DNA from: Vulcanimicrobiota bacterium
GTDB taxonomy: Bacteria > Vulcanimicrobiota > Vulcanimicrobiia > Vulcanimicrobiales > Vulcanimicrobiaceae
Length of the DNA stretch: 64,000 bases
Assembly: GCA_963777315.1 (NCBI GenBank)
Contig: CAVZQC010000002.1
Span: 96,001-160,000, forward strand
Direction: 5' to 3'
The first letter of the stretch is position 1; every line of letters begins with the position of its first letter. Shown in pieces: positions 44,114 to 64,000 of this stretch. Made by a program: the position numbers and the translations under genes. Under the pieces are notes generated by a model. It worked only from the letters and a program-made list of their open reading frames with translations. It was not told the origin of the DNA and made no database searches.

Positions 44114-46160
44114 CTACCTTCCGACCAATTCCTTGAGCGCGTGTTCGAAGATCTTGGGTGCTTTACCCTGGAACAGCATCGATTCGTTTCCGCCGATCTG
44201 CTTGCGCAGGCTCGATCAGCTCGTCGCGCAGCGCGGCAGCCTTTTCGAACTCCAGGCTCGCCGCGTACTCGCGCATCTTCTTGTCCAACTCCGCCGCCAT
44301 CTTCATCGCAACGTCGCGCGGCAGCCGTTCGCGCCGGATGTCGGACTGCGCCTCCTGCGTCGCGCCGACCATGGCCAAAATGTCGCGCACTTCCTTACGC
44401 ACCGTGCGCGGTTCTATGCCGTGCTCGAGGTTGTAGGCCACTTGCAGCTCGCGCCGCCGGCGCGTTTCTCCGATGGCCCGCGCCATCGACTCGGTAACGA
44501 CGTCGGCGTACATGATCACCGTGCCGTCGATGTTGCGCGCGGCGCGGCCTATCGTTTGAATCAGCGAGGTGCCGCTGCGAAGGTACCCCTCCTTGTCCGC
44601 ATCCAGAATGCCGACCAGCGAGACTTCGGGCAAATCCAGCCCCTCGCGCAGCAAATTGATGCCGACGAGCACGTCGAACACCCCTAAACGGAGATCGCGC
44701 AGAATCGCGATGCGTTCGAGCGTATCGACTTCGCTGTGCAGATAGCGCACGCGAAAGTTCATCTCGATCAGAAAATCCGTGAGATCTTCGGCCATCTTCT
44801 TGGTGAGCGTCGTCACGAGCACGCGCTCCTTGCGCTCGGCGCGCTTGCGGATCTCCTCCATCAGGTCGTCGACCTGGTTGCGCGTGGTTCGGACCTCGAC
44901 TTCCGGATCGACCAGACCCGTGGGACGAATGATCATCTCGACCACTTGCGAACTGCGGCCCACTTCATACGTGCCCGGCGTCGCCGACAGGTACACGATC
45001 TGCTCGACGTGCTCTTCGAACTCGTCGTACGTCAGGGGGCGGTTGTCGAGCGCGCTGGGCAAGCGAAAGCCGTGCTCGACCAGCGAAATCTTGCGCGAGC
45101 GGTCGCCGCCGAACATCGCGTGGACTTGCGGAAGCGTCACGTGCGACTCGTCGACGAACACCAGCCAGTCTTTGGGAAAGAAATCGAGCAAACACCATGG
45201 CGTGGAGCCGGGTTCGCGCCCGGTGAGGTGGCGCGAATAGTTTTCGATGCCGTTGCAGTAACCCACCTCGCGCAGCATGTCGAGATCGTAGCGCGTTCGC
45301 ATCTCCAGACGCTGGGCCTCGAGCAGCTTGCCGTTTTGCCTGAAGTAGCGCAGCCGCTCGTCGAGCTCGGCCTCGATCGACGCAATCGCGCGCCGCAGCT
45401 TCTCCTCGGGAGTGATGAAATGCTTGGCGGGAAAGATCAGCAGTTCGTCTTTGCTCTCGACGTACTCGCCGGTCAGGATGTTGACGACGTTGATGGCGTC
45501 GATTTGGTCGCCGAAGAACTCGATTCGATGGATGAGATCCTCGTCGACGCCCATGAATTCCAGCGTGTCGCCGCGCACGCGAAACGTGCCGCGAACCATG
45601 TTCAGGTCGTTGCGCCGGTACTGCATGTCGACGAGCTTGCGCAGCAGCGCGTCCCGGTCGAGTTCCTCGCCCAGGCGCAGCTTCACGGACATTTCCATGT
45701 AGTCCGACGGCGAGCCCAAACCGAAAATGCACGACACCGACGCCACAATCAGCGTGTCGCGCCGCGTAAGCAGCGACTGCGTGGCCGAATGGCGCAGGCG
45801 CTCGATCTCCTCGTTGACCGAGCTGTCTTTCTCGATGTACGTGTCGGTGTGCGCGATGTACGCCTCGGGCTGGTAGTAATCGAAATAGGAAACGAAGTAC
45901 TCCACCGCATTGCCCGGGAAAAAGTCGCGGAATTCGGCGCACAGTTGAGCGGCCAGCGTTTTGTTGTGCGAAAGCACCAGGGTGGGCTTTTGCACCATTT
46001 CGATGACCTTGGCCATGGCCACGGTTTTGCCGCTGCCGGTCACGCCGAGCAGCGTCTGCGCGCGATCGCCGCGGACGACGCCTTCGGCCAAGGCCTGCGT
46101 AGCCTTGGGCTGGTCGCCGGCGAGCTGGTAGGGGGTGACGAGTTCGAACGCTTGAGCCAT
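44114..46160 (-). CDS. uvrB: Excinuclease ABC subunit B (apparent +1 frameshift at about 44210)
   Basis: [37 protein letters not shown]; corrected end LRDELIELRKQ...LVGR*. Confidence 0.97.
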
Positions 46161-46275
46161 CGCTTTTCTTCGACATAGCCCGGACGTTGCGGGTTGCGTT
46201 CGGGCAACCGCGAGGGTTGCGCGCGCAAGCGCGGGAACCTCATGGTCCGCCCGCCCACGTCTGGAGATTCGCCCC

Positions 46276-47301
46276 TTGAGCCACAACCCGTTACTCTTCA
46301 GCGGCAACTCGAACCAACGGCTGGCCGAGGAGATCGCCAAACGGCTCAAGCTGCACGTGGGCAAAGCGCTGGTCTCCAAGTTCAGAAACGAAGAAACGCG
46401 CGTGCAGATCGGCGAGAATGTGCGCGGCTCGGAAGTCTTCGCCATTCAGTCGCTGTGCAAATCGCCCGGCGGCAACGGCGTGAACGATTCCCTGATGGAG
46501 CTGCTGCTGATGATCGATGCGCTCAAGCGCGCCTCCGCAGCTCGCATCACCGCCGTCATTCCGTACTACGGTTATGCCAAGCAGGACAAAAAAACGACCG
46601 GGCGCGAGCCGATCTCGGCCAAAGTCGTCGCGGACATGCTCAAGACCGCCGGCGCAAACCGCATGGTCACCATGGACCTGCACGCCGCGCAGATTCAGGG
46701 GTTCTTCGACGGGCCCGTCGACAATTTGATGGCGATGCCCACGCTGTGCAACTATCTTAAGAAGGACGGTCTGTGCGAGGACCGCGTCGTGATCGTTTCA
46801 CCGGATGCGGGCGGAGTGCATCGCGCCGAACTGTTCGCCAAACGGCTGAACTCGTCGCTCGCGATCGTCTTCAAGCGCCGTCCTGAACCCGACGTCTCCG
46901 AGGTTACCGACATCGTCGGCGACGTCGCCGGCAGAGTGGCGGTGGTCGTCGACGACATGATCTCCACGGGCGGCACGCTTGCCAAAGCCGCCGAAGCGAT
47001 CATCGCGCGCGGCGCCACGCGCGTGTACACCGTTGCATCGCACGGCATCTTTGCGGGCGACGCCATCCGCGTTCTGGACGAGTCCCGAATCGAACGCGTC
47101 GTGGTCACCAACACGATCCCGTTCCCCGACGTTTCCGAGCATCCCAAGTTCGTGCAGCTGTCGATCGCGCAAACGTTCGCCGATGCGATCAATCGCATTA
47201 CGACCAACCGATCGATCTCCGAGCTCTTCACCGATGAAGGTGAAGAAAAAAAGTTGAATGACGCACCCCGCCCTATGCCGGAACCGGCAATCGTACCGTA
47301 A
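46276..47301 (+). CDS. prs: Ribose-phosphate pyrophosphokinase
   Basis: [35 protein letters not shown]. Confidence 0.97.
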
Positions 47302-49375: not shown

Positions 49376-50280
49376 GCGCCACGTTCGCTGGTCAGTTCCA
49401 GGAAGCGCTCCTCGAGCGTGGGCGTAACCGGCTCGATCGCCAGAACCGACGCGCCCGCGGCGACCAGCGCGTTGACCATGATCGGCACCCGATTGGACTG
49501 CACGTCGCGCACGATAAAGGCGCTGCGTTCGCGCGATACCGATCCAAAAGGCGAGAGCACGCGTTCGAGCGGCTCGCCGCCGGCGCGCGCGCGAACGCGC
49601 ACGTCCTGTCGCACCCCCAGAATGTCCGCGATCGCGCCGTGCGCGACAACCTGCCCTTTGGTGACGATCGCAATCCGGTCGCAGACCTGCTCCACCTCAG
49701 TCAGTAAGTGGGAGTTCAGAAAAACCGCGGTGCCGCGCTCCCGAAGGCGGTGTAGAATCTCGCGCACCTCCAGGCGCCCGGATGGATCCAGCGCAGACGT
49801 CGGTTCGTCCAAAACGATCAATTCGGGGTTTCCCAACAGCGCGACGGCTAGACCCAAGCGCTGCTGCATGCCTTTGGAAAACGAGTGAACGCGATCGTCT
49901 GCGCGAGCGCGCAGCCCGACCAACTCCAACACTCGTTCGATGTCGCGCGATTCGAGCTGCGAGGAACACAAACGCGCGTGGAACGCGAGTACTTCCCGCG
50001 CAGACAGCCATTCCGGGTACCGGAAGAGTTCGGGAAGATATCCCAGACGGCTTCGCGCGCGGCGATCGCCGAGCCGATATCCGAGAACTGCGCCGCTGCC
50101 GGCGCTCGGACGGATCAATCCAACGAGCAACTTGACCGAGGTGGTTTTCCCCGCGCCGTTGGGACCCAAGAATCCGAATATTTCACCGCGGCGAACGCGC
50201 AAGGAAAGATCCGAGAGCGCCTGCACGCGCCCGTATCGTTTGGCTAGCCGGTCGACCTCGATGACGCTATCGCAAACCAT
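49372..50280 (-). CDS. ABC transporter ATP-binding protein
   Basis: GPNGAGKT, FSKGM, LDEP, H-loop. Confidence 0.95.
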   Translation of the reverse strand: MVCDSVIEVDRLAKRYGRVQALSDLSLRVRRGEIFGFLGPNGAGKTTSVKLLVGLIRPSAGSGAVLGYRLGDRRARSRLGYLPELFRYPEWLSAREVLAFHARLCSSQLESRDIERVLELVGLRARADDRVHSFSKGMQQRLGLAVALLGNPELIVLDEPTSALDPSGRLEVREILHRLRERGTAVFLNSHLLTEVEQVCDRIAIVTKGQVVAHGAIADILGVRQDVRVRARAGGEPLERVLSPFGSVSRERSAFIVRDVQSNRVPIMVNALVAAGASVLAIEPVTPTLEERFLELTSERGA

Positions 50281-51217
50281 CCGCGAGCGTCATGACGTCA
50301 TCCATCGAAACCGGGCCGGCAACGACGTACACCGTTCCGCCGCGCTGCCACATGACGCCGGCGCCCAGGCCCGTGTCGTCGCCGATTGCCAAACCCGGCA
50401 TCCCGTTGACGCTCACGCGGCGAGCGGTTTGCTTGTCGACGATGACCGGCACCGGTACGGTGTTCTGGATATCGCCGAGCGCGCGAATCTGCTGCGCCAG
50501 CTTCGGCGACACGTTGGGCATCGAGAGCAGATAGCGTTCCAGCGTGTCGAGCGATGCGCCGCTCGAGGTGATTCGCGGCGTTTGCGCCTGCACGACGTCG
50601 ACGAACTGCGTGCGATCGTTGCCCGCACGGGCGGACGAGGATCGATAGCGTACCTCAAAGACGTATCCGGTCTGCAAGCGGACAGTCGTGCCGTCCAGGG
50701 AGCGCGGCATCGGCGCAAGCCTCTTGTGCGCCCGCCGTTCGAACGCGCGTGCCTTGGCTGCGCTGAACGTGAAGGTCATTTCGCCTGGACTCCACGCGGT
50801 GTACGAATGAGCCGTGAAATGCGGCGGCGCTGCCGCCGGGCGGCTCAACGCGAAAGGCACGTGCTGCGCGGCTGCCGCGAACCCGGCGTACCTGTGCGGC
50901 ATGGGCTTTCGCACGATCCGCTGCGTCCCCACGTCGTTTGCTTGCGGCAGCAGACGGAGATCGCGCAGGTCCGCACGGGAGACGTCGATCGGCTGGAATT
51001 GCCGCGGTTCGAACACGGTCAAAAACGACCGCGCGTATCCGCCCAGCGGCGTGAAAATCAGCGCGAGAACCAGAACTGCGAGCGCCGCGAATACTGCCGA
51101 CGGCCGATACCACGCCGGGCTCGTTCGCCGCGCGGCAGCGTGCCGTTCCGAGCGATCGTCCAACTCCGGCGGTTCGTCCGGCATGCGGCGCAGGGTTCCG
51201 CTCTCGAGATGCTTCAC
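50267..51217 (-). CDS. Anti-sigma-like single-TM protein with truncated N-terminus
   Basis: MKHLESGTLRR..DE start, one TM, extracytoplasmic domain ending WQRGG.VY.VAG; AAGGAG RBS. Confidence 0.65.
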   Translation of the reverse strand: MKHLESGTLRRMPDEPPELDDRSERHAAARRTSPAWYRPSAVFAALAVLVLALIFTPLGGYARSFLTVFEPRQFQPIDVSRADLRDLRLLPQANDVGTQRIVRKPMPHRYAGFAAAAQHVPFALSRPAAAPPHFTAHSYTAWSPGEMTFTFSAAKARAFERRAHKRLAPMPRSLDGTTVRLQTGYVFEVRYRSSSARAGNDRTQFVDVVQAQTPRITSSGASLDTLERYLLSMPNVSPKLAQQIRALGDIQNTVPVPVIVDKQTARRVSVNGMPGLAIGDDTGLGAGVMWQRGGTVYVVAGPVSMDDVMTLADGLR

Positions 51218-51367
51218 GTTCGATCTCCTTTTTTATCGGATCGGCCGTCCGCCCGCGCAGACATCCGTCGATCGGCTGCGTCCTCGGCCCGCGCGCATTC
51301 TGCAGTACTGCGAAAAGGCTCTCGAGCGCCGGGTGCGGTACACCGACGGCATGCCGGCAGTTACCAT
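51218..51367 (-). pseudogene. Possible ECF sigma factor remnant
   Basis: ALESLFA and KKEIER fragments only about 25 codons apart, directly upstream of the anti-sigma-like gene. Confidence 0.35.
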
Positions 51368-51461
51368 ATGCCCTTATAGCACCGCAAGACGCCGTTTTGT
51401 AACACCGATGCGTTATCTTTAGCGTAAAGGATGTCGATAACGTAGCTGAACGGAGGTCCCG

Positions 51462-52139
51462 ATGGAGGGGTTTGCAGGCAAAGCATTCGTGGTTCGGGTC
51501 GACGAGGCAACCGCCTTCGCCTCGCAAACGACGTTCTTCGACGACTTGGCCTTCCTGGCGCGCAGCAGCGTCCATCCCATCGTGGTGGCTCCCTCGAGTA
51601 CGGTGCGCCGAACGCTCGTGCGCACGATAAACCGCAGCGGCAACATGGCCGTGGGTCTTTCGGGCTCGGATGCCGCGATGCTGCCCGCAGCGGGAAGCGG
51701 CCTAGGCAACGTGCAGACCGGCATTCTCGAAACCCTCACGCGCGCCGGCTACATCCCCGTCATCGAGCCCACTGCATTTGGGGTATTCGAACCGCGCGAC
51801 CGCTACGTTGCCGCCGACGAGGTGGCAAGCGCGATTGCCGCCGCGACCGACGCCGTGCGCGCAATTTTCTTTCACGCGCTGGGCGGCGTGCCCGATCCGC
51901 AGAGCGAAGCGCTCATCAGCGAGCTCACTCCAGCTGAAGCGCTGGTCATTTCCGAGAACCCGCGCGTGCCCGCGGACTTGCGAACCGCAATTCGAGCTGC
52001 CGCATTGGGCGTGCGCGCAGGCGTAAGCCAAGCGCAGATCGTCGACGGACGGATCGCGCATGCGGCCGTGGTCGAGCTGCTGACGGCGCACCACTTGGGA
52101 ACGCGAGTGACCGGCAGCGTGTTTACCGGCGCTGCGTGA
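51462..52139 (+). CDS. Degenerate acetylglutamate-kinase (AAK)-like protein
   Basis: AVGLSG.DA, GYIPVI.P, ADEVA, IVDGR..HA..ELLT...GT present; catalytic Gly loops absent. Confidence 0.8.
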   Translation: MEGFAGKAFVVRVDEATAFASQTTFFDDLAFLARSSVHPIVVAPSSTVRRTLVRTINRSGNMAVGLSGSDAAMLPAAGSGLGNVQTGILETLTRAGYIPVIEPTAFGVFEPRDRYVAADEVASAIAAATDAVRAIFFHALGGVPDPQSEALISELTPAEALVISENPRVPADLRTAIRAAALGVRAGVSQAQIVDGRIAHAAVVELLTAHHLGTRVTGSVFTGAA

Positions 52140-53322
52140 GACACGGATCGCTGCGCCCCTGAAGCGCGGCGATACGCTGGCCCGGCGGCGGATGCGAGCT
52201 CAAATACCAATACGCGAACGGATTGGGACACACGGTGAGCAGCGATTGATCGGCGCGCCGCACTTCAAACCGAATCGCCGCCGCCGGATCGGCGGTCAGC
52301 GCAATTCCCGCCTTGTCGGTGACCAGATCCAGATTGCGGGAGTAACCGTTATAGAAGGGCAGGGCGATAAGATACACGCAGCCCACGACCGCGCCCAGCA
52401 GCGCCAGCCGCGACACCGGGTCGTCGTCGCGCCGGAATCCAATCCGATCCGAAATCAGCACCGCCAGCGCCGCCGCCAAAACCACAATCGCGCCCTGCAC
52501 CAGAGCCTGATGCAGTCCGTCGTTGGCCTCGATCCATGCGTACGAGCGCGCAAAGAGAAACCGCAGTTCGGGCGGCGTTGCGCCCGCAAGGATCGTGTCC
52601 GATATGACGATCCGCTGAGAGCCGCCCCACCCGGTGACGTACGCACTGCCCGTTCGCGTCCTGGACGAGATGCGTTCGTCCAGAACGGGTACGCCGATGC
52701 CGGTGCGTGCGCGCAGGAGAGCCAGATCCGACGCCACCGCCGCCGGCAGCGTGGCGGGAGCATAGCTCGTATAGGCGGGCGCAATGACGTATGGATTGAC
52801 GTACGAAATCAGCAGCGTGAACCCGATGACCGCTCCGATCGTATAGACGTACCATTGACGCGTTTTGTCCGCCAGCCCAAGCACGATCGCGGCGATCAGG
52901 CCCGCGACGACCATGGCGATCGCCGTGGCGGCGAGCCAATCCGCCAGCCACGTTCGAAACAGCAGCTGCGTCAGTTCCATGATGCGTGAAAAGCGGTAGA
53001 GCACCGCCTGCGGCATCAGCGCCACGATCTTGTCCAGCAGCGCGAGCAGCGCGCCGAAACACCATCGTACGGCAAACTCCGAGCGCAGCACCGAACGAAG
53101 CGAGTCGCGCAATTGCGCCGAAAGGCCCGAGTTCCAAAACCATGCCAGCACCGCTATCTGCAGGGCGACCATCACGATCCAAAGCGGAATGCGCAGCTGT
53201 TCCAAGTGCCCGGCTCCGGCTGCTCGCGCCGGATCGACGAGCTGAAACGCGGAGCGAGTCAACAGGTCGTGCGCCGGAATCGCGTTGACGGCGCGATCGA
53301 GCGCATTGGGACGGCCTATCAT
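52123..53322 (-). CDS. M48/Ste24-like membrane protein lacking HEXXH
   Basis: SSRT..GSAYVTGWGGSQRIVISDT, SHPP..QRI; Zn motif replaced by RSYAW. Confidence 0.8.
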   Translation of the reverse strand: MIGRPNALDRAVNAIPAHDLLTRSAFQLVDPARAAGAGHLEQLRIPLWIVMVALQIAVLAWFWNSGLSAQLRDSLRSVLRSEFAVRWCFGALLALLDKIVALMPQAVLYRFSRIMELTQLLFRTWLADWLAATAIAMVVAGLIAAIVLGLADKTRQWYVYTIGAVIGFTLLISYVNPYVIAPAYTSYAPATLPAAVASDLALLRARTGIGVPVLDERISSRTRTGSAYVTGWGGSQRIVISDTILAGATPPELRFLFARSYAWIEANDGLHQALVQGAIVVLAAALAVLISDRIGFRRDDDPVSRLALLGAVVGCVYLIALPFYNGYSRNLDLVTDKAGIALTADPAAAIRFEVRRADQSLLTVCPNPFAYWYLSSHPPPGQRIAALQGRSDPCLTQRR

Positions 53323-53359
53323 CGTCCGCCCTGTTCGCGGCGCCCTTGCGGATCGCTTT

Positions 53360-54463
53360 TTACTCGTACACGGCAAACGACGCGCCGGCGACCGCGAACG
53401 AAACGCGGCCGCGCCCCGTGCGTTTGCTGTGATACATCGCGGCGTCCGCAATCTCGAGCAGTTCGCCGGCGTCGCGCGCATCGTATGGGTATGCGGCCAC
53501 GCCGACGCTGGCGCTGATCGGCAGCGGCACGCCGAAATCGCAGTTGCGCACCGCATCGCAATAACGCTGCGCGCGTTCGATCGCCGCCAGTTTGTGCACG
53601 TTGCGAACGATTGCGCAGAACTCGTCGCCACCGTTGCGCGCCGCCAAATCGACACCGGCCAGCGTGTGTTCGCGCAGCAGCGAGGCCATGCGCGTAAGCA
53701 CCATGTCGCCTGCCGCATGCCCGAAGGTGTCGTTGACGCGCTTGAAATGATCGGTGTCCACGAACCACAGGCACAAGCAGGCGCGGGTGCTCAAACGAGC
53801 GAGCGCAACGTCTGCCTGCAGCGTTTCGCGAAACGCGCGAGGCGTATGCAGCCCGGTGAGCCCGTCATAGATCGCGCGGCTGCGATCGGCTTGCCGTTCG
53901 GCGGCCAGCACGTACGGGAATGCGGCCTGGGCCACTGCTCGAACCAGCAGATCCGGATCGCGGATGCAATCTTGAGCGGATGCGGCGTACACGACCGCTG
54001 CAACGCCGTCCGCCCCGAGCATAGGGACGGCCAGCGCAAAACGATCGGTCGGGACGATTGCCTGGGCGCGGTCGTCGAGCACGACGCGATGGCCGCACAG
54101 CGCTGCGCGCGCGGGCAGTGAAGCGCCGTGATCGCGCCGGACGCGCACTCCGGCATAGTGCTCGGCGCGCGAGCCGGCGACATGCACGCACGCGAGGTCG
54201 TCCCCGGCCGGAACGAAAACGAGCACCGCGTCGACCGACGGATCGAGCACTCGGAGCGTACGATCGAGTGCCGTGAGGACCGCGGCAGTCGATTCGCGCG
54301 ATGCCGCGCTCAAAACGCGCACCGCTTGCAGAACGTCGCTCTCACGGCGCTCCACCGTTTTCAAGCGCGCGCGCAGTCCGGCCGCAAGCATCCGCATTCG
54401 CAGCGCATACACGGTCGCCGCGGCGCATGCAAGCGCAAGAAACGTCAAGCCGGCCTGATACAC
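53360..54463 (-). CDS. TM-GAF-GGDEF diguanylate cyclase
   Basis: DGLTGL, DTDHFKRVNDTFGH..GD, RNGGDEF, ADAAMY..K. Confidence 0.92.
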   Translation of the reverse strand: MYQAGLTFLALACAAATVYALRMRMLAAGLRARLKTVERRESDVLQAVRVLSAASRESTAAVLTALDRTLRVLDPSVDAVLVFVPAGDDLACVHVAGSRAEHYAGVRVRRDHGASLPARAALCGHRVVLDDRAQAIVPTDRFALAVPMLGADGVAAVVYAASAQDCIRDPDLLVRAVAQAAFPYVLAAERQADRSRAIYDGLTGLHTPRAFRETLQADVALARLSTRACLCLWFVDTDHFKRVNDTFGHAAGDMVLTRMASLLREHTLAGVDLAARNGGDEFCAIVRNVHKLAAIERAQRYCDAVRNCDFGVPLPISASVGVAAYPYDARDAGELLEIADAAMYHSKRTGRGRVSFAVAGASFAVYE

Positions 54464-54492
54464 TGCCCGGTTAGTGCCCGCGTACGAGCGCC

Positions 54493-57142
54493 TTGGGCCA
54501 GCGCAAGCAGCATCGTGCGGGAAGCGAGGTCGAATTCGACGTAGCCACACTGCCGGAGGTGCCCATTCTCTCCACCCGCTTGATGCGTTCGCGCGTCAAC
54601 GAGCGCCTCGAGCGCGCTACCAGATTTCCCGTAACGCTGATAGCTGCGCCCGCGGGCTTCGGCAAAAGCGTCGCGCTGCGCGATTTCGCCGATACTTCGC
54701 GCCTGGACGCCGTTCGTTACGACGTTCACCGCGAGGACGGTACGCTGCTTGCCTTCGTTCGCCGTCTGAGCGAAACGCTCAAGCCGGTCGCGCCCAGCGC
54801 GATTGCGGCGTTCCCCGCGATACACGAACGCGTGCTTGCCGCCGACGAGCCCGTGCTTCGGCTGTCGGATTGGTTCTTCGAGCATCTCAGGCGCGTCGTC
54901 TGCACCATCGTCATCGACGATTTGCATTACGCTGCCGTCGACCGAGCGTCGATCGCGCTTTTGGCCGATTTGATCGAACGTACGACCGATCGCATTCGCT
55001 GGATCATCGCCGCACGCAGCGACGTGGGCCTTCCGGTTGCCAGCTGGATCGCGTACGGCCGCATGGATATGCCCATCGGCGAAGACGATCTGCGTTTCAC
55101 GATCGACGAAGCACTGGCAAGCGCGGATGCAGCGGCTGCCGATCTGGACCCGCACGAGATCGAAGCGCTCTGCGACTTGACCGAAGGCTGGCCGGTAGCT
55201 CTAGCAATCGCGCTGCGCACGCGCACGTACGCGGCCGATCTGCTTAGCGCGTCCTCCGGCACGCGCGAGATGGTCTACAGATATCTCGCCGAGCAGGTTT
55301 TTGCGGGATTGACGCCCGACCAGCGCGCCTTCGTGCTGGCGACGTGCGTATTTTCGACGTTCAACGCAACGATCGCGCAAACGCTGGGAGCGAGCCCGGA
55401 CGTTCTGTCCGACATACGCTCGAAAGTCGCTTTCTTAAACGAGATCGGTCCCGCCGAATACCGGTATCACGATCTCTTCCGGGATTTCTTGGAAGCGGAG
55501 TTGCGCCGCCGCGGCGAGGGCGACTGGACGCGCGCGGCGCGCCGGGGAGCCGAGCTGTTGGAACAGCGGGGCGACGACGCCGGCGCGCTCGTTTTGTACG
55601 CCAAAGCCGGTGAATCGCAGGCATTGCTGCGCATCGTGGATCGCAAGGGCTTTTCGATGTTCGAGCACGGTCAAAGCGAAGCGCTCAGCGCGGCTCTCGA
55701 CGCGATACCGGACGAGCTCAAACAGGCCGATGCGGCTGCGCTGGGATTGCGCGCGACGATCGAGGCCAGCCGCGGACGCTTTGAATTGGCGCAACGCGGC
55801 TTCATCACGGCGATAGACAAAGCCGGCGATCCGGACCTTCGAACCGCACTCGTGCACCGGTATGCCATCGAGCTCGTGCGGCACGATCGCGACTGCGTGG
55901 GTTTTTTGGAGCCGTACGCGAAGGATGGGACGCTCTCGGACGAGCAGCGCGTGCCGCTGCTGGGCACACTCGCAACCGCGTATCTGGCGGCGAACCGGTA
56001 CGCAGACGCGCTGGCGACGATCCAGCGAGCGCTGGATGCGATCGATCCGTCGATGAACGCCGAGATGCTCGCGCGTCTGTATCAGCAAGCCGCCTACATC
56101 CACGATTTCGGGCCCGAGCGCGAACGCGCCAGAACGTACGCTGCGCTGGCAATCGAGCTGGCGCTTCCGCGCAACCTGTTCGACGTGGCAGCGCGCGCCT
56201 ACAGCGCGCTGTTCAGCGTGGCGTACAACGAGGACGACGATCCGATCGCGTGTTTGAAGATTCTCGACAAGCTCGACGAATGCGCGCGCAAAGGCGCCGG
56301 AAACCAGGCGCGCGTGTTCGCGCTCATGGCCGCATACGAGCTGGAAGTCGAACGCGGCGACGATGCCGCGCTCGAGCGTTTGGACAGCGCGCTGCACGAA
56401 AACCAGGCGGCACTTCCGCGCGCGCGTTCGGAAACGTTCCTGCCGGCCGACGCACTGCGGGCGGCGTGGGTCGGCGATTTCAAGCGCGCGCTGCAGCTGC
56501 TCGCCGGCACGGCCGAACAGTTCTCCAGCGACGAACGGCGCGCGCTGCGCGCTGCAGAAATTGCGCTGTACGCCTTCGCGTGCGCAGACGGCGATCGGGG
56601 CGCGGCTGCTTTGGAGCAGGCAGAGGCCGCGCTCGAACGCTGCACGCGCGAAACGCGCCGAACGATTCGCTCGCGCATCTTCATCGCGCTGGCCGAGATG
56701 CTGCGCGGGCATTCCAGCGCGGCCAACCGCCACTTGACCCAAGCCGAACGCGCGCTCACCCCGCAAATGCGCCGAGTCCGCGCCTTGGCGCACGCCGCCA
56801 GAGCGTTGTATCGCGTCCAGCTCAATCAAGCGGATCGGGCCGCGCGTTCGGGAGTTCTGGAACGCTTGCGGGCCGAGCATTTCGGCGGGATAGCGCGCCT
56901 GATCGAGGCGCTGCCGTTCTCGGCGGATTCGGGCCAAGGCTACGGAACGCTCACCGCGGCCGAGCGCGAAATTCTCCAACTGCTCGCAAGGGGCGGCAGC
57001 ACGAAAGACGTGGCGGCCCGAACCGGCCGCAGTCCGCATACGGTCGATACGCACATTCGCTCCATCTGCCGCAAGCTCGCGTGCAGCGGCCGGCGCGAAG
57101 CCGTCGCGTTCAGCTACCAGCCAAGGCTGGGTACAGACCTAG
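54493..57142 (+). CDS. MalT-like STAND ATPase-TPR-LuxR regulator (start uncertain; +1 frameshift at about 57111)
   Basis: APAGFGKS, IDDLH, LRFT..EA, EGWP, YRYHDLFRDFL, LuxR HTH; corrected end AVALATSQGWVQT*. Confidence 0.9.
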
Positions 57143-57177
57143 AGCTTTTTCGCTGTTGCGGCTCTCGGGGAGAAGCG

Positions 57178-58374
57178 ATGTTTGTCTATCGGTGCGCATT
57201 GGTTCTCGCGTGCATCGGACTTGCGGCGTGCAGTGCGCAGCAGCGCGGCGGGGTGATCCCCGCGTCCCCCGCTTCCGGGCCGCGAACGGTCATGGACAGC
57301 CCCAGCGCTCTGCCGGGCGACAGCCCGAGCGCGCTGCCCGGAGATAGTCCGTCGGCTTTGCCGGGCGCCCAGCTCGGGTGCGATCTCACCTTCGAGGCCG
57401 ATCAGGCGAACTGCACGGTCGCGATCAACATCACCGTTCCGCCCGTGAGCGATGCGACCACGCCGGCCAATCTGCTATCGGGCTTGCATCCTATAGATTT
57501 GCGCGCGCGTTACGGGTTGCCGGTATGGCCTGCGCGGGGTGCCGTCGCGATCGTCGACGCTTACGACGATCCGCAGGCCGAGCTCGATTTGGCCGTGTAT
57601 CGCGCCGCGTTCGGCCTTGCGCCCTGCACGTCGCTCAACGGCTGTTTCCGCAAGGTCAATCAACGGGGCGCGGCGGGACCGTACCCGGCAGCCAACCTGG
57701 GCTGGGACGAAGAGATCTCGCTGGATTTGGACATGGTTTCGGCTGCATGTCCGGATTGTTCGATAGTTCTGGTGGAAGCCGATTCGGCGTCGTTCGATGA
57801 TTTGGGCAGCGCGGTCGATGCAGCGGCGCTCATGCGCCCGGCAGCAATTTCCAACAGCTACTACGGCCCCGAGTGGTCGGGCGAACGCGCGCTGGACAAG
57901 CATTACCGGCATAGCGGCATAGCAATAACCGTCAGCGCCGGCGATCAGGTCAGCCCGTTCTATCCCGCCGTATCGCCGTACGTAACCTCCGTCGGCGGCA
58001 CCACGCTTTCGCAGAGCGGCGGGTCATGGAACGAAACCGCGTGGCAATACGGCGCGCGAGGCTGCAGCCGCTTCGAACCCAAGCCGAATTGGCAGGGCGT
58101 CACGGGATGCCGCACCCGCGCCATGACCGACGTCGCCGCAGTCGCGGATCCGCAAACCGGTGTCGCGATGTACGATTCAACCGCCGGCGGCTGGGTCGTG
58201 ACGGGCGGCACGAGCGTCGGTGCGCCGCTGCTCGCAGCCGCATACGCGTTATCGTGGAACCCCAGAGATCCCGCGTATTCATACCGGCATCCCTCGGCAT
58301 TTCACGATATCGCTCCGGCAGGCTACGATCCGGCGACCGGCCTGGGATCGCCCAACGGTCTGGGCGGCCTATAG
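57178..58374 (+). CDS. S53 (sedolisin-like) peptidase lipoprotein
   Basis: LAAC lipobox; EISLD, SAGD, GGTS catalytic motifs; YDPATGLGSP; GGGAG RBS. Confidence 0.88.
   Translation: MFVYRCALVLACIGLAACSAQQRGGVIPASPASGPRTVMDSPSALPGDSPSALPGDSPSALPGAQLGCDLTFEADQANCTVAINITVPPVSDATTPANLLSGLHPIDLRARYGLPVWPARGAVAIVDAYDDPQAELDLAVYRAAFGLAPCTSLNGCFRKVNQRGAAGPYPAANLGWDEEISLDLDMVSAACPDCSIVLVEADSASFDDLGSAVDAAALMRPAAISNSYYGPEWSGERALDKHYRHSGIAITVSAGDQVSPFYPAVSPYVTSVGGTTLSQSGGSWNETAWQYGARGCSRFEPKPNWQGVTGCRTRAMTDVAAVADPQTGVAMYDSTAGGWVVTGGTSVGAPLLAAAYALSWNPRDPAYSYRHPSAFHDIAPAGYDPATGLGSPNGLGGL
57295..57366 (+). repeat. 3 x 24-nt tandem repeat encoding DSPSALPG
   Basis: GACAGCCCCAGCGCTCTGCCGGGC / GACAGCCCGAGCGCGCTGCCCGGA / GATAGTCCGTCGGCTTTGCCGGGC. 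Confidence 0.95.
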
Positions 58375-58676
58375 CGGCGCTTTCCATCGGCGACAGCGCG
58401 TTCCAGCGTGTCGTAAATGCAGAAACGATCGGCCACGCCCGTTTCGACGAGCAGACCGCGCACGAACGCCGATCCGACCGCGAGCCGCGCCGCGGGCAAT
58501 TTGCGCCGCAGACGCTGGGCGTGAACCTTCACCAGCGCGGTGATCAGCGTCGTCGTCACGTACTTGGCGGCGGATAAATCGAGAACGATCGCCGGATGAT
58601 AAAATGCGGGCTGCAGGCGCTCGTGAAGCTCCTCACGCCTGGAAACGTCCCACTCCCCTGCCAGCGAAACGATCAT
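58323..58676 (-). CDS. STAS-domain (anti-sigma antagonist-like) protein
   Basis: LAGEWD, IVLDLS..KYVTTT, V..LL..TG....F.IY. Confidence 0.82.
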   Translation of the reverse strand: MIVSLAGEWDVSRREELHERLQPAFYHPAIVLDLSAAKYVTTTLITALVKVHAQRLRRKLPAARLAVGSAFVRGLLVETGVADRFCIYDTLERAVADGKRRYRPPRPLGDPRPVAGS

Positions 58677-58791
58677 GCCGGTATCGTACGTCCGCCCGCC
58701 GGCGCGCGCCCTACTCAAATTCCGGTATGTGAAATGCGCCGGCCCGCGGGTATGCTGTGGATACAGAGAAGCATCCCCGCTTTACTGGATC

Positions 58792-58831
58792 GGAAGAGGC
58801 GCCTGATACACCGCCTCTTCCTTCATTTTTT
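58792..58831 (+). terminator. Hairpin plus T-tract just past the glmU stop
   Basis: GGAAGAGGCG-N10-CGCCTCTTCC followed by TTCATTTTTT. Confidence 0.6.
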
Positions 58832-60169
58832 CGGCAGCGGGCGCGCAGGGTTTCCGGCGACGCGCCCGCCGGGGGGCACGTCTTTGGTGACGACCGCCGA
58901 AGCGCCCGTCAGCGCCCCGTCGCCCACGCTGACCGGAGCGACCAGCGAGGTGTTCGAGCCGATCGAAACGCCGCGGCCGATCGCCGTTTTGTTTTTGTTC
59001 TTGCCGTCGAAGTTGCACGTAATCGTGCCCGCGCCGATGTTCGTGTCCTCGCCGATTTCCGCATCGCCCAAATAGGAGAGATGGCTCGCTTTGACGCCGC
59101 GCGCCAGGCGTGAGTTTTTCACCTCGACGAAGTTGCCGATACGAACGCCCTGCGCGAGCACGGTTTGATCGCGCAGATGCGCGAACGGGCCGACGGTGAT
59201 GTCGTCGGCCAGCGTGCTGTCGATGATGACGCTTTCGCGAATCGTCGCGCCGCTGCCGATCTTTGCGCCGGAAAGACGCGCGTTCGGCCCGATGACGCAG
59301 CGCTCGCCGATCTCGGACAAGCGTCCGATTGTGCTGTTGGGATAGATCACGGTATCGCGCCCGATCTGCAGTTCAGGTTCCAGATACGTGGCCTGCGGAT
59401 CGACGATCGTCACGCCGTCGCGCATGTGCTGCGCGCACAGCCGCTGGTTCATCTCTTTGCGCGCCTGCGCGAGCTCGACGCGGTCGTTGATGCCCAGCAG
59501 GTGCAGATGGTCGGTGGCCATCACCGGCACGACGCTCGCGCCCGACCCTGCCAAATCGGCGATCGTATCGGTGAGATAGTACTCGCGTTGCGCGTTGTCG
59601 CTGCGCAGGCGGCTTACGGCATCCCGCAGAGCGCTTTCGTCGTAGGCGTAAATGCCCGCATTCATCTCATCGACTGCGAGTTCGTCCGGCGTCGCGTCGC
59701 GCGCTTCCACGATACGCTCGACGTGCTGCCCGCGGCGAATGACGCGTCCGAAGCTGCAGGGCAGCGGCATCCTCACCGTGACCATCGCGAGCGCGGGCGC
59801 CCGGCCATTCGCGGACGCCAGCGAACCGATGACGCCGCGAAAAATCTCCTCGTGCACCAGCGGCATGTCGGCGTACGCCACGACGACGCGGCCCTGCGAA
59901 TCGGGTTCCAGTTCGGCCAGCGCGGTTTGCACGGCGTGGCCGGTTCCGAGCTGTTCGCGCTGAACGACGCTGCGGACTTGGAACCGCGCAACGTGCTCCT
60001 GCAGCTGGTCGTTCGTCACGACGAGGATATCCTCCACGCCCGCTTTTCGCAGCGCCTGCAGCGAGTACCACAGCATGGGCCGCCCGCACAGCTCGTGCAG
60101 CACCTTAGGAATCGCGCTTTTCATGCGCGTCCCTTTGCCGGCCGCCAGCAATATCGCGCGCACCCTCAT
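58823..60169 (-). CDS. glmU: Bifunctional UDP-GlcNAc pyrophosphorylase/acetyltransferase
   Basis: LAAGKGTRMKS..PK, QLGTGHA, EYYLTD, GNFVEVK, hexapeptide repeats. Confidence 0.97.
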   Translation of the reverse strand: MRVRAILLAAGKGTRMKSAIPKVLHELCGRPMLWYSLQALRKAGVEDILVVTNDQLQEHVARFQVRSVVQREQLGTGHAVQTALAELEPDSQGRVVVAYADMPLVHEEIFRGVIGSLASANGRAPALAMVTVRMPLPCSFGRVIRRGQHVERIVEARDATPDELAVDEMNAGIYAYDESALRDAVSRLRSDNAQREYYLTDTIADLAGSGASVVPVMATDHLHLLGINDRVELAQARKEMNQRLCAQHMRDGVTIVDPQATYLEPELQIGRDTVIYPNSTIGRLSEIGERCVIGPNARLSGAKIGSGATIRESVIIDSTLADDITVGPFAHLRDQTVLAQGVRIGNFVEVKNSRLARGVKASHLSYLGDAEIGEDTNIGAGTITCNFDGKNKNKTAIGRGVSIGSNTSLVAPVSVGDGALTGASAVVTKDVPPGGRVAGNPARPLPKK

Positions 60170-61608
60170 GGCGCAGCCGCCGCCGTCAGGACGTCAAGCG
60201 CGCAGCGCAGGCGCTCGCGCACGATGTCGCGGCCCAGCAACTCGATCGCGTCGTACAACGGGACCGATGTCGAACTGCCGGTAACCGCCACGTAAAACGG
60301 CCGCGCGACTTCACGGAATTTACGTCCCAGCGTTTGCGCCACGCCGGTGAGCACCGCTTCGATCTCCGCAACGTTCCAGCTCGGCAGCGCATCGAACCCG
60401 CCGATCGCCAGCGAAAACGCTTTACGCAGCGATTCGTCGTCGAGCTTGCCCGATCGCAGCCGATCGGCGCTGACGTTGATGCGCCCCTGAAAGAAAAATG
60501 CGACCAGCGAACCCAAATCGCTCAGCCGTTCCACGCGCGAATGCGCGAGCTCGGCGATGCGCCGCAGGCGCGGCTCTTGAAAACCCCATTGCTGCACGGC
60601 ATGTAAAAACTCGTCCTCGTCGTAGCGTTCGCGCAGGTACCGCCCGTTGAGCCAATTCAGCTTGGCGGTGTCGAACACGGGGCCTCCCGTCGAAATGTGC
60701 TCGATGCCGAAACGCTCGGTAAGCGCGCGCAGATCCATCATTTCCTGCCCATCGGCGGACGAAACCGCGAGCAAGCCCAAGAAATTGAGCAGCGCCTCGG
60801 GCACGTACCCCATGGCTTTGTAGAATAAGATGCCGGTGGGATTCTTGCGTTTGCTCAATTTGCTTTTGTCCGGATTTCGCAGCAAGGGCAGATGCATGAG
60901 CGCCGGCGGATCCCATCCGAAATACCGGTACAGCAGCAGATGCTTGGGCGCGGACGAAAGCCACTCTTCGCCGCGAATGACGTGCGTGATCCGCATCAGG
61001 TGATCGTCGACGACGTTGGCCAGATGGTAGGTCGGCATGCCGTCCGATTTCATGAGCACCTGCATGTCGACGGTATCCCACGCAATCGGAATGTCGCCGC
61101 GCCGCATGTCTTGCACGATGCACGTGCCTTCGGACGGCACGCGCAGGCGCACGACGTACGCAATGCCCTGATCCTGCTTGGCTTGCGCTTCCTGCGGCGA
61201 AAGGTTCGCGCACAGCCCGTCGTATCTGGGCGGCCGTTTGGCGGCAACTTGTTCGGCGCGCATGGCGTGCAGCCGCTCGGGGGTGCAAAAGCATTTGAAT
61301 GCGTGGTTGCCGTCGAGCAACTGCGCAACGTAATGGGCGTAGATCGAGGAACGTTCGCTCTGGCGGTAAGGACCGTACTGTCCGCCCACGTCCGGGCCCT
61401 CGTCCCACGACAAGCCCAGCCAGTGCAGCGAATCGAGAATCGCGAGCTCGGACTCCTTGGTGCTGCGCGCGCGATCGGTATCTTCGATCCGGAGCACGAA
61501 CGCGCCGCCGTGCTTTTTCGCAAAGATGTAATTGACGAGAGCGACGTACGCCGTTCCGACGTGCGGATCGCCGGTGGGCGAGGGCGCTAATCTGGTTCTG
61601 ACGGTCAA
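60166..61608 (-). CDS. gltX: Glutamate--tRNA ligase
   Basis: APSPTGDPHVG (HIGH-like), RIEDTD, KLSKR. Confidence 0.96.
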   Translation of the reverse strand: MTVRTRLAPSPTGDPHVGTAYVALVNYIFAKKHGGAFVLRIEDTDRARSTKESELAILDSLHWLGLSWDEGPDVGGQYGPYRQSERSSIYAHYVAQLLDGNHAFKCFCTPERLHAMRAEQVAAKRPPRYDGLCANLSPQEAQAKQDQGIAYVVRLRVPSEGTCIVQDMRRGDIPIAWDTVDMQVLMKSDGMPTYHLANVVDDHLMRITHVIRGEEWLSSAPKHLLLYRYFGWDPPALMHLPLLRNPDKSKLSKRKNPTGILFYKAMGYVPEALLNFLGLLAVSSADGQEMMDLRALTERFGIEHISTGGPVFDTAKLNWLNGRYLRERYDEDEFLHAVQQWGFQEPRLRRIAELAHSRVERLSDLGSLVAFFFQGRINVSADRLRSGKLDDESLRKAFSLAIGGFDALPSWNVAEIEAVLTGVAQTLGRKFREVARPFYVAVTGSSTSVPLYDAIELLGRDIVRERLRCALDVLTAAAAP

Positions 61609-61635
61609 ACTCGTGCGCGCCGGGTGCTTTTGCGC

Positions 61636-62049
61636 CTACGTGACCAATTCACGGCGTTTGCCGCATTCGCGTTCCACGAATGAAACGATCTGCGAAAGCG
61701 GCGCGCCCGGCGTGAAGATCTCTTTGACGCCGCGTTCGCGCAGCGCCTGGGCGTCTTCGGGCGGAATGGTGCCGCCGCCGAAAAACACGATGTCCTGCGC
61801 GCCTTGCGCGCGCAGCTGGTCGACGACCAGCGGGAACAGCGTCATGTGGGCGCCCGAAAGGATCGATAGACCGATGCCGTCGGCGTCTTCCTGAACGGCC
61901 GTTTGCACGATCTGCTCGGGCGTTTGGAACAGGCCGGTATAAATGACTTCCATGCCGGCATCGCGCAGCGCGCGGGCGATGACCTTGGCTCCGCGGTCGT
62001 GCCCGTCCAGCCCCGCTTTGGCGATGACGACGCGCAGCGGTCTAGCCAT
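61636..62049 (-). CDS. Cobalamin-binding small subunit of acyl-CoA mutase (IcmB-like)
   Basis: [17 protein letters not shown]. Confidence 0.92.
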
Positions 62050-62212
62050 CGAGTTCGCTGCGCGAAGCCGGGGCGAACGGCGACGGACATTCGTCGCGAT
62101 CGCTGCGGTGTTCCAACTCCTCGGCCAGCCGTTGCGCTTCTTGGAGCTTTTCCTTGACCACCCGCAACGTCGCCGACGCCGCCTGCCGCTGCTGCTCGCT
62201 GTGAATGCGCAT
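62042..62212 (-). CDS. Small 56-aa helical protein (below the ORF-track cutoff)
   Basis: [56 protein letters not shown]; fills the gap exactly. Confidence 0.6.
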
Positions 62213-62214
62213 CG

Positions 62215-63928
62215 TTAAAACGCCGGTCGCTCGGTGTAGCGGCCGTATACCTCGACCATGGCCGACGCGATCTCGCCTTCGGTGGCGTAAGCGTTCACGC
62301 AGTCGATCAGATGCGGCATCAAATTGTCCTGCGGATCCCTGCAGGCCGCCTTGAGCCGGTCCAGCGCATTCTGCAGCGCCGTCCCGTCGCGCCGCGCCCG
62401 CACGGCCTGCACCGAATCGGCTTGATCGCGCTCGACGTGCTCGGCAATCCGCAGCAGATCGATGCCCGTGCGGTCTTCGGGTTTTTCGAACGCGTTCACC
62501 CCCACGACGATGCGGTCTTTGGTTTCCAGCGAGCGCTGATAGCGATAGCTCGCATCGGCGATCTCGCGCTGGAAAAAGCCGGCCTCGATCGCTTCGATGA
62601 CGCCGCCGTACTCGTCGATCTGCTTGAAGTACTCCTCCGCGCCTTGCTCCATCCGATCGGTCAGCGCTTCGACGTAGTACGATCCTCCCAGCGGATCGAC
62701 CACGTTGGTGACGTTGGTTTCATACGCGAGCACCTGCTGGGTGCGCAGGGCGATCTCCACGGACTTTTCCGTGGGGAGCGCGAGAACTTCGTCCATCGAG
62801 TTGGTGTGCAGCGACTGCGTGCCGCCGAGCACCGCCGCCATGGCCTCGTACGCAACGCGCACGATGTTGTTTTCCGGCTGCTGCGCGGTCGCGCTGCACC
62901 CCGCGGTTTGCGTGTGGAAACGCAGTCTGCCACGAGCGCGGGTCCTTCGCGCCGTACCGTTCGCGCATGTGGCGGGCCCAAATTCGGCGCGCGGCGCGAT
63001 ACTTGCAGATCTCTTCGAAGAAATCGATGTGGGCGTTAAAGAAAAACGACAGGCGCGGGGCGAACGAATCCACCTCCATACCGGCCTTCACGCCCGCTTC
63101 CACGTACGCGAATCCGTCGGCCAAGGTAAACGCGAGCTCTTGCACCGCGGTCGAGCCGGCTTCGCGAATGTGGTAGCCGCTGATCGAAACAGTGTTCCAT
63201 TTCGGCATTTGATCGCGGCAAAAGCGCATCATGTCGACGATTACGCGCATGTGAGGGCGCGGCGGAAAAATCCACTCTTTTTGCGCGATGTATTCCTTGA
63301 GGATGTCCGCCTGGATCGTCCCGCCGAGTTTGGCGCGCGGAATGCCTTTCTTTTCGGCCGCCGCGACGTACTGCGCCAGCGCGATGCACGCCGGGCCGTT
63401 GATCGTCATCGACGTCGTGATGTCGGCCATGTCGATTCCGTCGAACAACGTTTCCATGTCGGCGAGGGAATCGATGGCCACGCCGCACTTGCCGACTTCG
63501 CCGCGCGCTTGGCGCGAGTCGGAATCGTAGCCCATGAGCGTTGGCATGTCGAAGGCGACCGAGAGCCCGTGCTGGCCGTGCGCGAGCAAAAAGTGATAGC
63601 GCTCGTTGGTCTGCGCGGCATTGCCGAAGCCCGCGAATTGGCGCATCGTCCACAGCCGGTCGCGATACATGTTCGGGTGGATCCCGCGCGTGTACGGATA
63701 CAGCCCGGGCCAGCTCAGATCGTGCGCCAAATCGAGGTCGGCGACGTCTTCGGGACCGTAGATCGCGTTCACGTTCAGGTCCGAAATGGTGCGGTCCACC
63801 GCGCGCGAGCCGGCGCCTTTGCGGCGCGTGCCCTTGGCGGAAGCGGCCTCCCACTGTTCCTTTTCGTGAATGAATTCGTTAGTCGGCTGCGCCCCCAAAC
63901 CGCTGGGACGCTGGATCATCTTGGCCAA
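62215..63928 (-). CDS. icmA: B12-dependent acyl-CoA mutase large subunit, isobutyryl-CoA mutase-like (+1 frameshift at about 62926)
   Basis: [44 protein letters not shown] restored by removing one base. Confidence 0.8.
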
Positions 63929-64000
63929 GACTGCTCCTACTGCTGTGTGCCGCGGGCTCGTTCGCCGTGCCGCAGTATTTTCCCAATAATGCCCCTACCG

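Follow-up and report, generated by a model that had tools for sequence, protein, structure and literature searches.

A STAND regulator and a repeat-bearing S53 lipoprotein as a candidate peptide signalling module of Vulcanimicrobiales

The locus and its two genes

We analysed a 64,000-nt stretch of contig CAVZQC010000002.1 from a Vulcanimicrobiota bacterium (assembly GCA_963777315.1; hereafter the window), in which positions 54493-58374 of the forward strand read, as assembled, as a single open reading frame (ORF) of 1293 aa. This ORF is two genes joined via a single extra base: a MalT-type STAND regulator of about 860 aa (54493..57142, +) and an S53 (sedolisin/kumamolisin-fold) lipoprotein of 398 aa (57178..58374, +; Peptidase_S8, E=2.4e-5; kumamolisin fold, E=3.8e-19), which is also the putative precursor of an octapeptide, DSPSALPG, carried three times in tandem. 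Comparison with related genomes suggests that regulator and precursor probably form a peptide signalling system of the one-component type in Vulcanimicrobiales (Eremiobacterota), and that the octapeptide quite probably is released and acts as the ligand of the receptor; that the signalling takes place between cells appears slightly more plausible than its opposite.

The base that fuses the two frames is a C at 57111 (+). A public contig (151 nt, depth 2), otherwise identical, lacks exactly this base, and the orthologs have separate stops: among the 120 best protein matches listed, 119 were 831-890 aa long and the sole one of 1293 aa was the window's own, in a search that reached lengths of 1526 aa. 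C57111 is probably an assembly error. Once it is discounted, the second frame ends ATSQGWVQT* at a TAG stop (57140-57142). The gap to the lipoprotein ATG at 57178 is then 35 nt, the spacing that a first-pass annotation of the DNA had given; the regulator likely starts at the GTG at 54559. A genuine in-frame fusion, in which a frameshift mutation joined regulator and protease into a chimera or put the module of this strain out of action, is how the assembly reads, but we consider it very improbable: the contig without the base (one contig, at that low depth), the lack of a second fused protein among those 120 matches and the frameshifted appearance of further window genes all argue against it. 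At 62215-63928 a mutase-like gene seems split over two frames, and at 44163-46445 a uvrB-like ORF has an odd tail (both gene names assigned by eye); these oddities are probably more indel errors in the assembly.

The regulator is a MalT-like STAND protein by architecture, and it is not MalT. Its layout comprises an NOD (NBD-HD-WHD with Walker A and B motifs), an arm, a helical-repeat sensor and, as effector domain, a C-terminal LuxR helix-turn-helix (HTH) domain (GerE match at residues 819-872); no SARP/BTAD match was found in it, and its homologs carry precomputed PF25873 and PF00196. Residues 27-419 match the MalT structure 8bob (E=5e-15), and the AlphaFold2 model (pLDDT 88.5) gave as top fold matches 6mfv (PH0952, a STAND protein with a tetratricopeptide repeat (TPR) sensor) and then 8bob. 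In the Walker A motif GFGKS (54655..54669, +), G55, G57 and K58 are conserved at a level of at least 90% in 82 orthologs, in which D142 of Walker B, D143 and R175 are invariant. The sensor (55720..56916, +; residues ~410-808), predicted from the secondary structure of the model and from co-variation with the peptide to be the peptide-binding domain, shows about ten helix pairs, and the Pfam scan gave no TPR match in the regulator. E. coli MalT and PH0952 (PMC4381067, PMC6468293) resemble the regulator in the NOD-arm-sensor(-LuxR) layout and intact Walker motifs, and are its top sequence and fold matches. However, the MalT inducer is maltotriose, the similarity covers residues ~26-429 and the HTH and not the sensor, the score against the NCBIfam MalT equivalog (154.7 bits) lies far under the cut-off of 537, and no maltose genes stood out among the flanking ORFs examined. 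With a cut-off of E 1e-60, the regulator family was present in 71/81 genomes of the same family and 2/2 of the sister family, and in 0/67 genomes from 17 other families of the phylum. Relatives carry the names Ca. Eremiobacteria, Baltobacteraceae and Elarobacter, and NCBI maps the family to Vulcanimicrobiaceae.

The S53 lipoprotein has a basic-hydrophobic N-terminus followed by the lipobox LAAC (57220..57231, +), a motif pattern consistent with Sec export, and the lipobox Cys18 is invariant in 74 orthologs, as are E179, D183, D256 and S346. From the family motif we take E179, D183 and S346 to be the Glu-Asp-Ser triad and D256 to be the oxyanion Asp, which, together with the subtilisin-like fold, places the protein among the sedolisins (kumamolisin, kumamolisin-As, TPP1; MEROPS S53). 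It differs from these in that no Pfam pro-kumamolisin domain was matched; in place of one, the protein has a lipid anchor, a disordered array of repeats and a short segment with two Cys. Residues 21-56 of the model have pLDDT <50 and the block 61-70 has a mean of 89, the model being ordered from the last LPG onward and the earlier copies not.

The three DSPSALPG copies (57295..57366, +; 742.8 Da each) differ pairwise at 4, 7 and 9 of 24 nt, all synonymously, and the second Ser is encoded by AGC/AGC/TCG, as the first-pass annotation had noticed. Among 91 distinct precursors we counted 1-8 copies each (multi-copy in 82/91). Their majority octamers come in 65 versions and take the form [DEGNH]-[GSTNA]-x-x-[AG]-[LMV]-P-[GA], of which positions 6-8 belonged to the search pattern itself. 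Between copies within a gene (positions 1-5, copies less than 5/8 identical to the majority dropped) nonsynonymous divergence (pN) was 0.037 and synonymous divergence (pS) 0.61; therefore the protein sequence of the octamer is held uniform within a species, though it differs between species. This constraint at the protein level agrees with the earlier view that the peptide is selected and is not a freely varying linker. The precursors of L038, L117 and L241 mix peptide variants, and five genomes have two such systems with different peptides. Duplicated and diverging autoinducer copies have been described for Rap-Phr (PMC5199041). Moreover, 21 paralogous S53 genes without a regulator match in the fetched locus included no tandem xxxxx-LP[GA] array, 19 of these 21 control loci having been fetched with only 1.5 kb of flank.

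Pairing across genomes and sensor-peptide co-variation

The proposed pairing of regulator and repeat-bearing neighbour was conserved. Among distinct orthologous regulator loci, gathered by regulator similarity and counted if they reached the regulator C-terminus, 101/105 adjoin a repeat-bearing S53 gene, in 82 genomes and 25 genera of Vulcanimicrobiaceae; the matches fetched were a part of those listed (one unpublished-genome match being among the omitted), for ten of the paired loci (11 locus ids) the pairing was settled by visual inspection, and L275, with regulator and precursor ~2 kb apart, is counted among the 101. Three of the four unpaired loci end at contig edges and one (L195) is a real exception. 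In genus g24, a single clade on the tree, the precursor is divergent and upstream of the regulator, and the pair has thus outlived a gene rearrangement by inversion.

The peptide also occurs without the protease. On contig C1 of the same genome, a 141-aa precursor with DSASALP x8 is convergent on an HD-GYP gene, which follows an HTH-less paralog of the regulator; the whole second module (L001; G000:C1:229713-235255) consists of a GGDEF-EAL-like gene, the HTH-less STAND paralog overlapping the HD-GYP-like gene, and the convergent precursor. A search with this protease-free family gave 18 matches in 348 genomes, 17 of them beside HD-GYP and one unrelated, and in the 8 fetched neighbourhoods an HTH-less paralog adjoins. 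Protease-free relatives are about 40-145 aa long, and the cores found in this search include DSASAVP, DSVTAKP, DVPSAVP, DSGAAVP, DSVPAIP and DIPHAMP, and GLSPMP and AMPPIP in the unpublished genomes G021 and G029. In 14 of them the first copy comes directly after a signal-peptide-like N-terminus (cleavage site placed by eye), which sets a likely N-terminal Asp. These precursors beside paralogous receptors show the peptide, and not the protease, to be the constant partner of the receptor. They also correct the first-pass annotation with regard to the peptide core, since what the octamers have in common with them is a 6-7-mer with Pro as its last residue. An ESM Atlas search with a protease-free precursor gave matches only at 0.76, which were not used.

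Further, the residues of the sensor track the peptide. An arginine ladder, R682 (56536), R686 (56548), R723 (56659) and R760 (56770) (56536..56772, +), follows the acidic first residue of the peptide: R686 is kept in 59/59 receptors with a D/E-starting peptide vs 7/23 others, R723 in 59/59 vs 11/23, and positions 686, 723 and 760 are all basic in 51/59 vs 0/23. The top columns linked to an acidic first residue were R686, R760 and R723, on three successive first-of-pair sensor helices, and among the 72 columns invariant in the acidic group R686, R723 and R682 were those most often changed in the others; of 2000 random sets matched for clade size, 0 reached the level of the top column (R686) and 1 that of the next. 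The first helices of TPR pairs line the groove, which is a general property of TPR domains and not a reading of coordinates here. R686 or R723 is lost in 7/8 non-acidic clades. In addition, over 82 pairs, peptide changes coincide on branches with changes in the first helix of each sensor pair more often than with changes in 47-48 control columns of the protease (NOD tree, p=0.0004; whole-protein tree, p=0.003; trees from quick IQ-TREE and FastTree runs). Alignment A1 included the unpublished G021/G029 rows, and the main alignments A3 and A5 did not. When sensor residues 392-812, with an alignment of 82 rows, were co-folded with residues 34-63 of the precursor, the score was 0.02 (mark 0.32), in a run with no controls, on a construct without most of the arm and with a 30-mer in place of the free peptide. 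On these comparisons, co-variation between neighbouring secreted repeats and the regulator sensor, which had been proposed as a check, is borne out in the homologs, and the putative receptor-peptide module is real and conserved.

A signalling model and the alternatives

Several independent comparative lines support the first-pass idea that the protease frees a repeated peptide sensed by the adjacent regulator. We propose that the precursor, presumably expressed from the promoter-like site in the 3' end of the regulator gene, would be exported as a lipoprotein, and that the sedolisin domain of the same chain, for which low pH is the probable trigger, would cut after each Pro-Gly (P2 = Pro), which may free up to three DSPSALPG per chain. 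Pro occurs at -2 before the first copy in 45/91 precursors vs 14% in the linker. This Pro and the constant PG terminus point to a cut behind Pro-X, the specificity described for kumamolisin (PMC8053163); the same source has kumamolisin cleaving at PR/PK sites and reports acidic optima for sedolisins. The peptide would then build up outside the cytoplasm and re-enter via an Opp/Dpp-type ABC importer, and the genome encodes 13 SBP_bac_5 proteins and two oligo_HPY ATPases. Once inside, the peptide is predicted from the co-variation to dock in the helical-repeat sensor, where the R682/R686/R723/R760 ladder would receive its acidic first residue. By analogy with MalT, for which inducer- and ATP-dependent oligomerisation is described (PMC4381067, PMC6468293), binding may lift autoinhibition and allow ADP to ATP exchange and oligomerisation, after which the LuxR domain would activate target promoters, candidate targets being nearby extra secreted sedolisins and c-di-GMP genes. 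The species-specific octamer would define a pherotype, and the HTH-less paralogs would take the same kind of input, with the adjacent HD-GYP enzyme as the probable output. The wider proposal, to which we give slightly better than even chances, is that diderm soil bacteria have a family of cell-to-cell peptide signals, with pheromones that the cells make themselves and with STAND ATPases related to NLRs as the receptors. In this clade the precursor would double as its own acid-gated maturation protease and release several copies per chain, and the arginine ladder would read dozens of species-specific peptides with which it co-evolves, whereas sister clades would route the same input to c-di-GMP turnover.

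Several results weigh against this proposal. The cell is diderm (BamA and LpxC in the genome), so that a peptide of 743 Da may have no free way out of the periplasm. The acidic-residue co-variation rests on 6 parsimony changes, with only 3 independent pairs on well-supported branches, a number that cannot reach significance, and the random sets for the invariant columns were matched to clade sizes and not to branch lengths. The non-acidic lineage L173 (NGANALPG) keeps R686 and R723, as do two HTH-less paralogs with non-acidic cores from the unpublished G021 and G029, and an association of Pro3 with Ala610 was not upheld in independent pairs. About 19 of the 45 cases of Pro at -2 are PG ends of probable degenerate leading copies. 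At L195 neither the 4 kb upstream of the regulator nor the 1.4 kb that follow it contained a precursor, and no operator for the LuxR domain was found, only a -10-like motif and a C-run being conserved upstream of the precursor. Finally, no adjacent peptide gene was found in the screen for L058, L075, L082 and a large, widespread group of paralogs beside HD-GYP, represented in the same genome by a STAND-LuxR gene followed by an HD-GYP-like gene (L002; G000:C4:295559-299361; no peptide gene found). The sensor of this group is without the R682/R686/E689 motif common to the peptide-linked groups.

If the peptide is the ligand, it could still be a private, autocrine reporter that stays in the periplasm of the producer and reports maturation of the acid-activated protease, so that pH or envelope state and not cell density is sensed. 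All of the co-variation evidence fits such a reporter equally well, the precursor is lipid-anchored in a lipopolysaccharide (LPS) diderm, and the optima of sedolisins are acidic (PMC8053163); we nevertheless hold it to be unlikely, at about one chance in several, since 65 sequence variants, as many as 8 copies and precursors that mix their copies would be of little use to it, since protease-free precursors with ordinary signal peptides exist, and since duplicated or diverging copies are known of the Rap-Phr autoinducers (PMC5199041).

The two remaining alternatives deny the peptide its role as inducer, and both are still less probable. In one of them the repeats are an element of the protease pro-region (a substrate-like inhibitor, an autoprocessing site or a spacer), and the regulator controls secreted proteases while sensing another molecule, e.g. 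a sugar or a protein-breakdown product. The order of the last LPG in the model, with the earlier copies disordered, recalls a bound pro-segment, the enzyme has no Pfam pro-kumamolisin match, extra sedolisins occur in 43 fetched loci (duplicates included), and the known inducers of MalT and GutR are small carbohydrates (PMC10936776). This is improbable in view of the near-identical cores in protease-free precursors beside paralogous receptors, the 21 unlinked S53 paralogs without an array, and a closer tracking of the peptide by residues of the regulator sensor than by control columns of the protease. In the other, slightly less probable again, the peptide is an antagonist or co-repressor, or else an AfsS-like output and not an input (e.g. 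the precursor of a modified peptide): AfsR, a STAND-TPR protein, activates the adjacent small repeat-protein gene afsS (PMC10936776; bioRxiv 10.64898/2026.09.02.748808), and RRNPP receptors are switched on or off by their peptides (PMC10075063). Peptide action may have an inhibitory sign, but an output-only role does not predict charge-matched sensor changes or pairing with HTH-less receptors, and among the selected genes screened no modification enzyme was a constant neighbour.

Under the preferred reading, in which the octapeptide is the ligand, the module works like RRNPP signalling, yet it departs from two of the five RRNPP criteria, propeptide size and receptor size. These systems (Rap-Phr, NprR-NprX, PlcR-PapR, AimR-AimP; PMC10075063, PMC5199041) likewise have an exported precursor beside a cytoplasmic helical-repeat receptor, a short variable peptide, intragenic peptide copies that are identical or diverged, and both DNA-binding and protein-output receptor types. 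The published criteria include a Sec-exported propeptide of 10-100 aa, a receptor of 250-500 aa with TPRs, and adjacent genes (PMC10075063); here the genes are adjacent (35 nt apart, and paired at nearly all loci), whereas the receptor is an 831-890-aa STAND ATPase, the precursor in this clade, a lipoprotein of 398 aa, comes fused to an intact protease, the host belongs to the LPS diderms and not to the Bacillota, and multiple copies are the norm (82/91). The nearest known pairing of a STAND protein with a small repeat gene is Streptomyces AfsR-AfsS, which joins a STAND-TPR regulator to an adjacent small variable repeat gene (PMC10936776; bioRxiv 10.64898/2026.09.02.748808). AfsR differs in its N-terminal SARP domain and in having, in these sources, no known inducer, and afsS is described there as a transcriptional target. 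AfsS is cytoplasmic, whereas the repeats here are predicted to be exported, are linked to a protease and co-vary with the sensor. Repeat precursors of the yeast alpha-factor/Kex2 type also have several pheromone copies cut from one chain by a subtilase-clan protease; they are eukaryotic, with a separate protease and a membrane receptor, and offer an analogy only.

The first-pass annotation had known of no system of this kind. We likewise found no prior description of a STAND-sedolisin-peptide system in the literature covered, from which subscription journals were largely missing, and we regard the module as undescribed. Most bacterial STAND-TPR regulators have unknown ligands, and the AfsR inducer has been called elusive (PMC10936776); here the adjacent gene names a candidate ligand, available as a cheap synthetic octamer, and about 100 natural receptor-peptide pairs would make STAND ligand recognition and specificity directly testable. 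If true, the proposal would extend cytoplasmic-receptor peptide signalling from Bacillota to an LPS diderm phylum via a different receptor class, add a precursor with its processing enzyme built in, and provide a set of probably orthogonal peptide-inducible switches.

Promoter-like element, neighbouring genes and further loci

A promoter (-10)-like element, TGGGTACA, lies inside the last codons of the regulator, upstream of the precursor gene (57128..57135, +). Its form TGGGTAYA occurs upstream of the precursor gene in both the tandem and the divergent arrangements. The Val of the regulator GWV motif is the rare codon GTA in 48/62 tandem loci vs 209/4165 Val codons overall, and in 1/29 divergent loci, in which it is the precursor that has the motif upstream. 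TGGGTAYA has 28 copies in the genome, several of them just before genes, including a tRNA-like sequence, and we therefore consider it a general (extended) -10-like element of the lineage and not an operator. We take this putative internal promoter at the 3' end of the receptor gene to resemble that of rap-phr. A sigma-70 scan found no promoter, a terminator-like match at 57127-57142 was at chance level (3 found vs 4.2 expected), and a tRNA search of window positions 50000-64000 found none.

The regulator is flanked by a divergent GGDEF diguanylate cyclase gene with an uncertain start (53360..54550, -; GGDEF, E=8e-34), and the precursor by a convergent STAS gene (58323..58718, -; STAS, E=1.7e-6). 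The suggested involvement of both genes stood as far as their presence at this locus goes; across loci they are accessory only. In counts limited by the fetched flanks, GGDEF was upstream in 17/63 tandem-type loci and STAS was present in 23/63 (46 with at least 2 kb downstream), each being found in 0/29 divergent-type loci, and an obligate link to either gene was rejected on these numbers. Between the STAS gene and glmU, at 58750-58830, GGGTATGCT stands before a strong hairpin and a run of T, possibly a short RNA or a terminator.

With regard to the protease, the unlinked S53 paralogs L003, L021 and L033 have LPGD within a two-Cys pro-loop, a possible origin of the LPG motif of the repeat. The extra pro-domain sedolisin genes mentioned above, found near L035, L036, L038, L039 and others, are possible regulon or target candidates.

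Paralogs of the receptor had further neighbours. An SBP_bac_5 gene is just upstream of the L001 module (C1:227646-228770), and a probable peptide-binding lipoprotein gene is upstream of the regulator at L071 and L087. S53 lipoproteins occur beside or near HTH-less paralogs at L064, L074, L094, L092, L088 and L244-L253, often with an HD-GYP gene between; those of L064, L074 and L094 bear GARAIP repeats, and those of L092 and L088 have imperfect (DAFP-type) repeats or a single xxxALP copy. Lipoproteins of 44-86 aa directly follow STAND-LuxR paralogs at L046, L047, L049, L086, L087, L089, L181, L182 and L233, and end in or repeat short Pro-containing motifs, e.g. DSGGMPPN and SIQPFPV. At L079 a small secreted protein with IKLPH/VKTPH repeats is encoded ~2.8 kb downstream of the regulator, after an HTH-less STAND gene and two HD-GYP-like genes.

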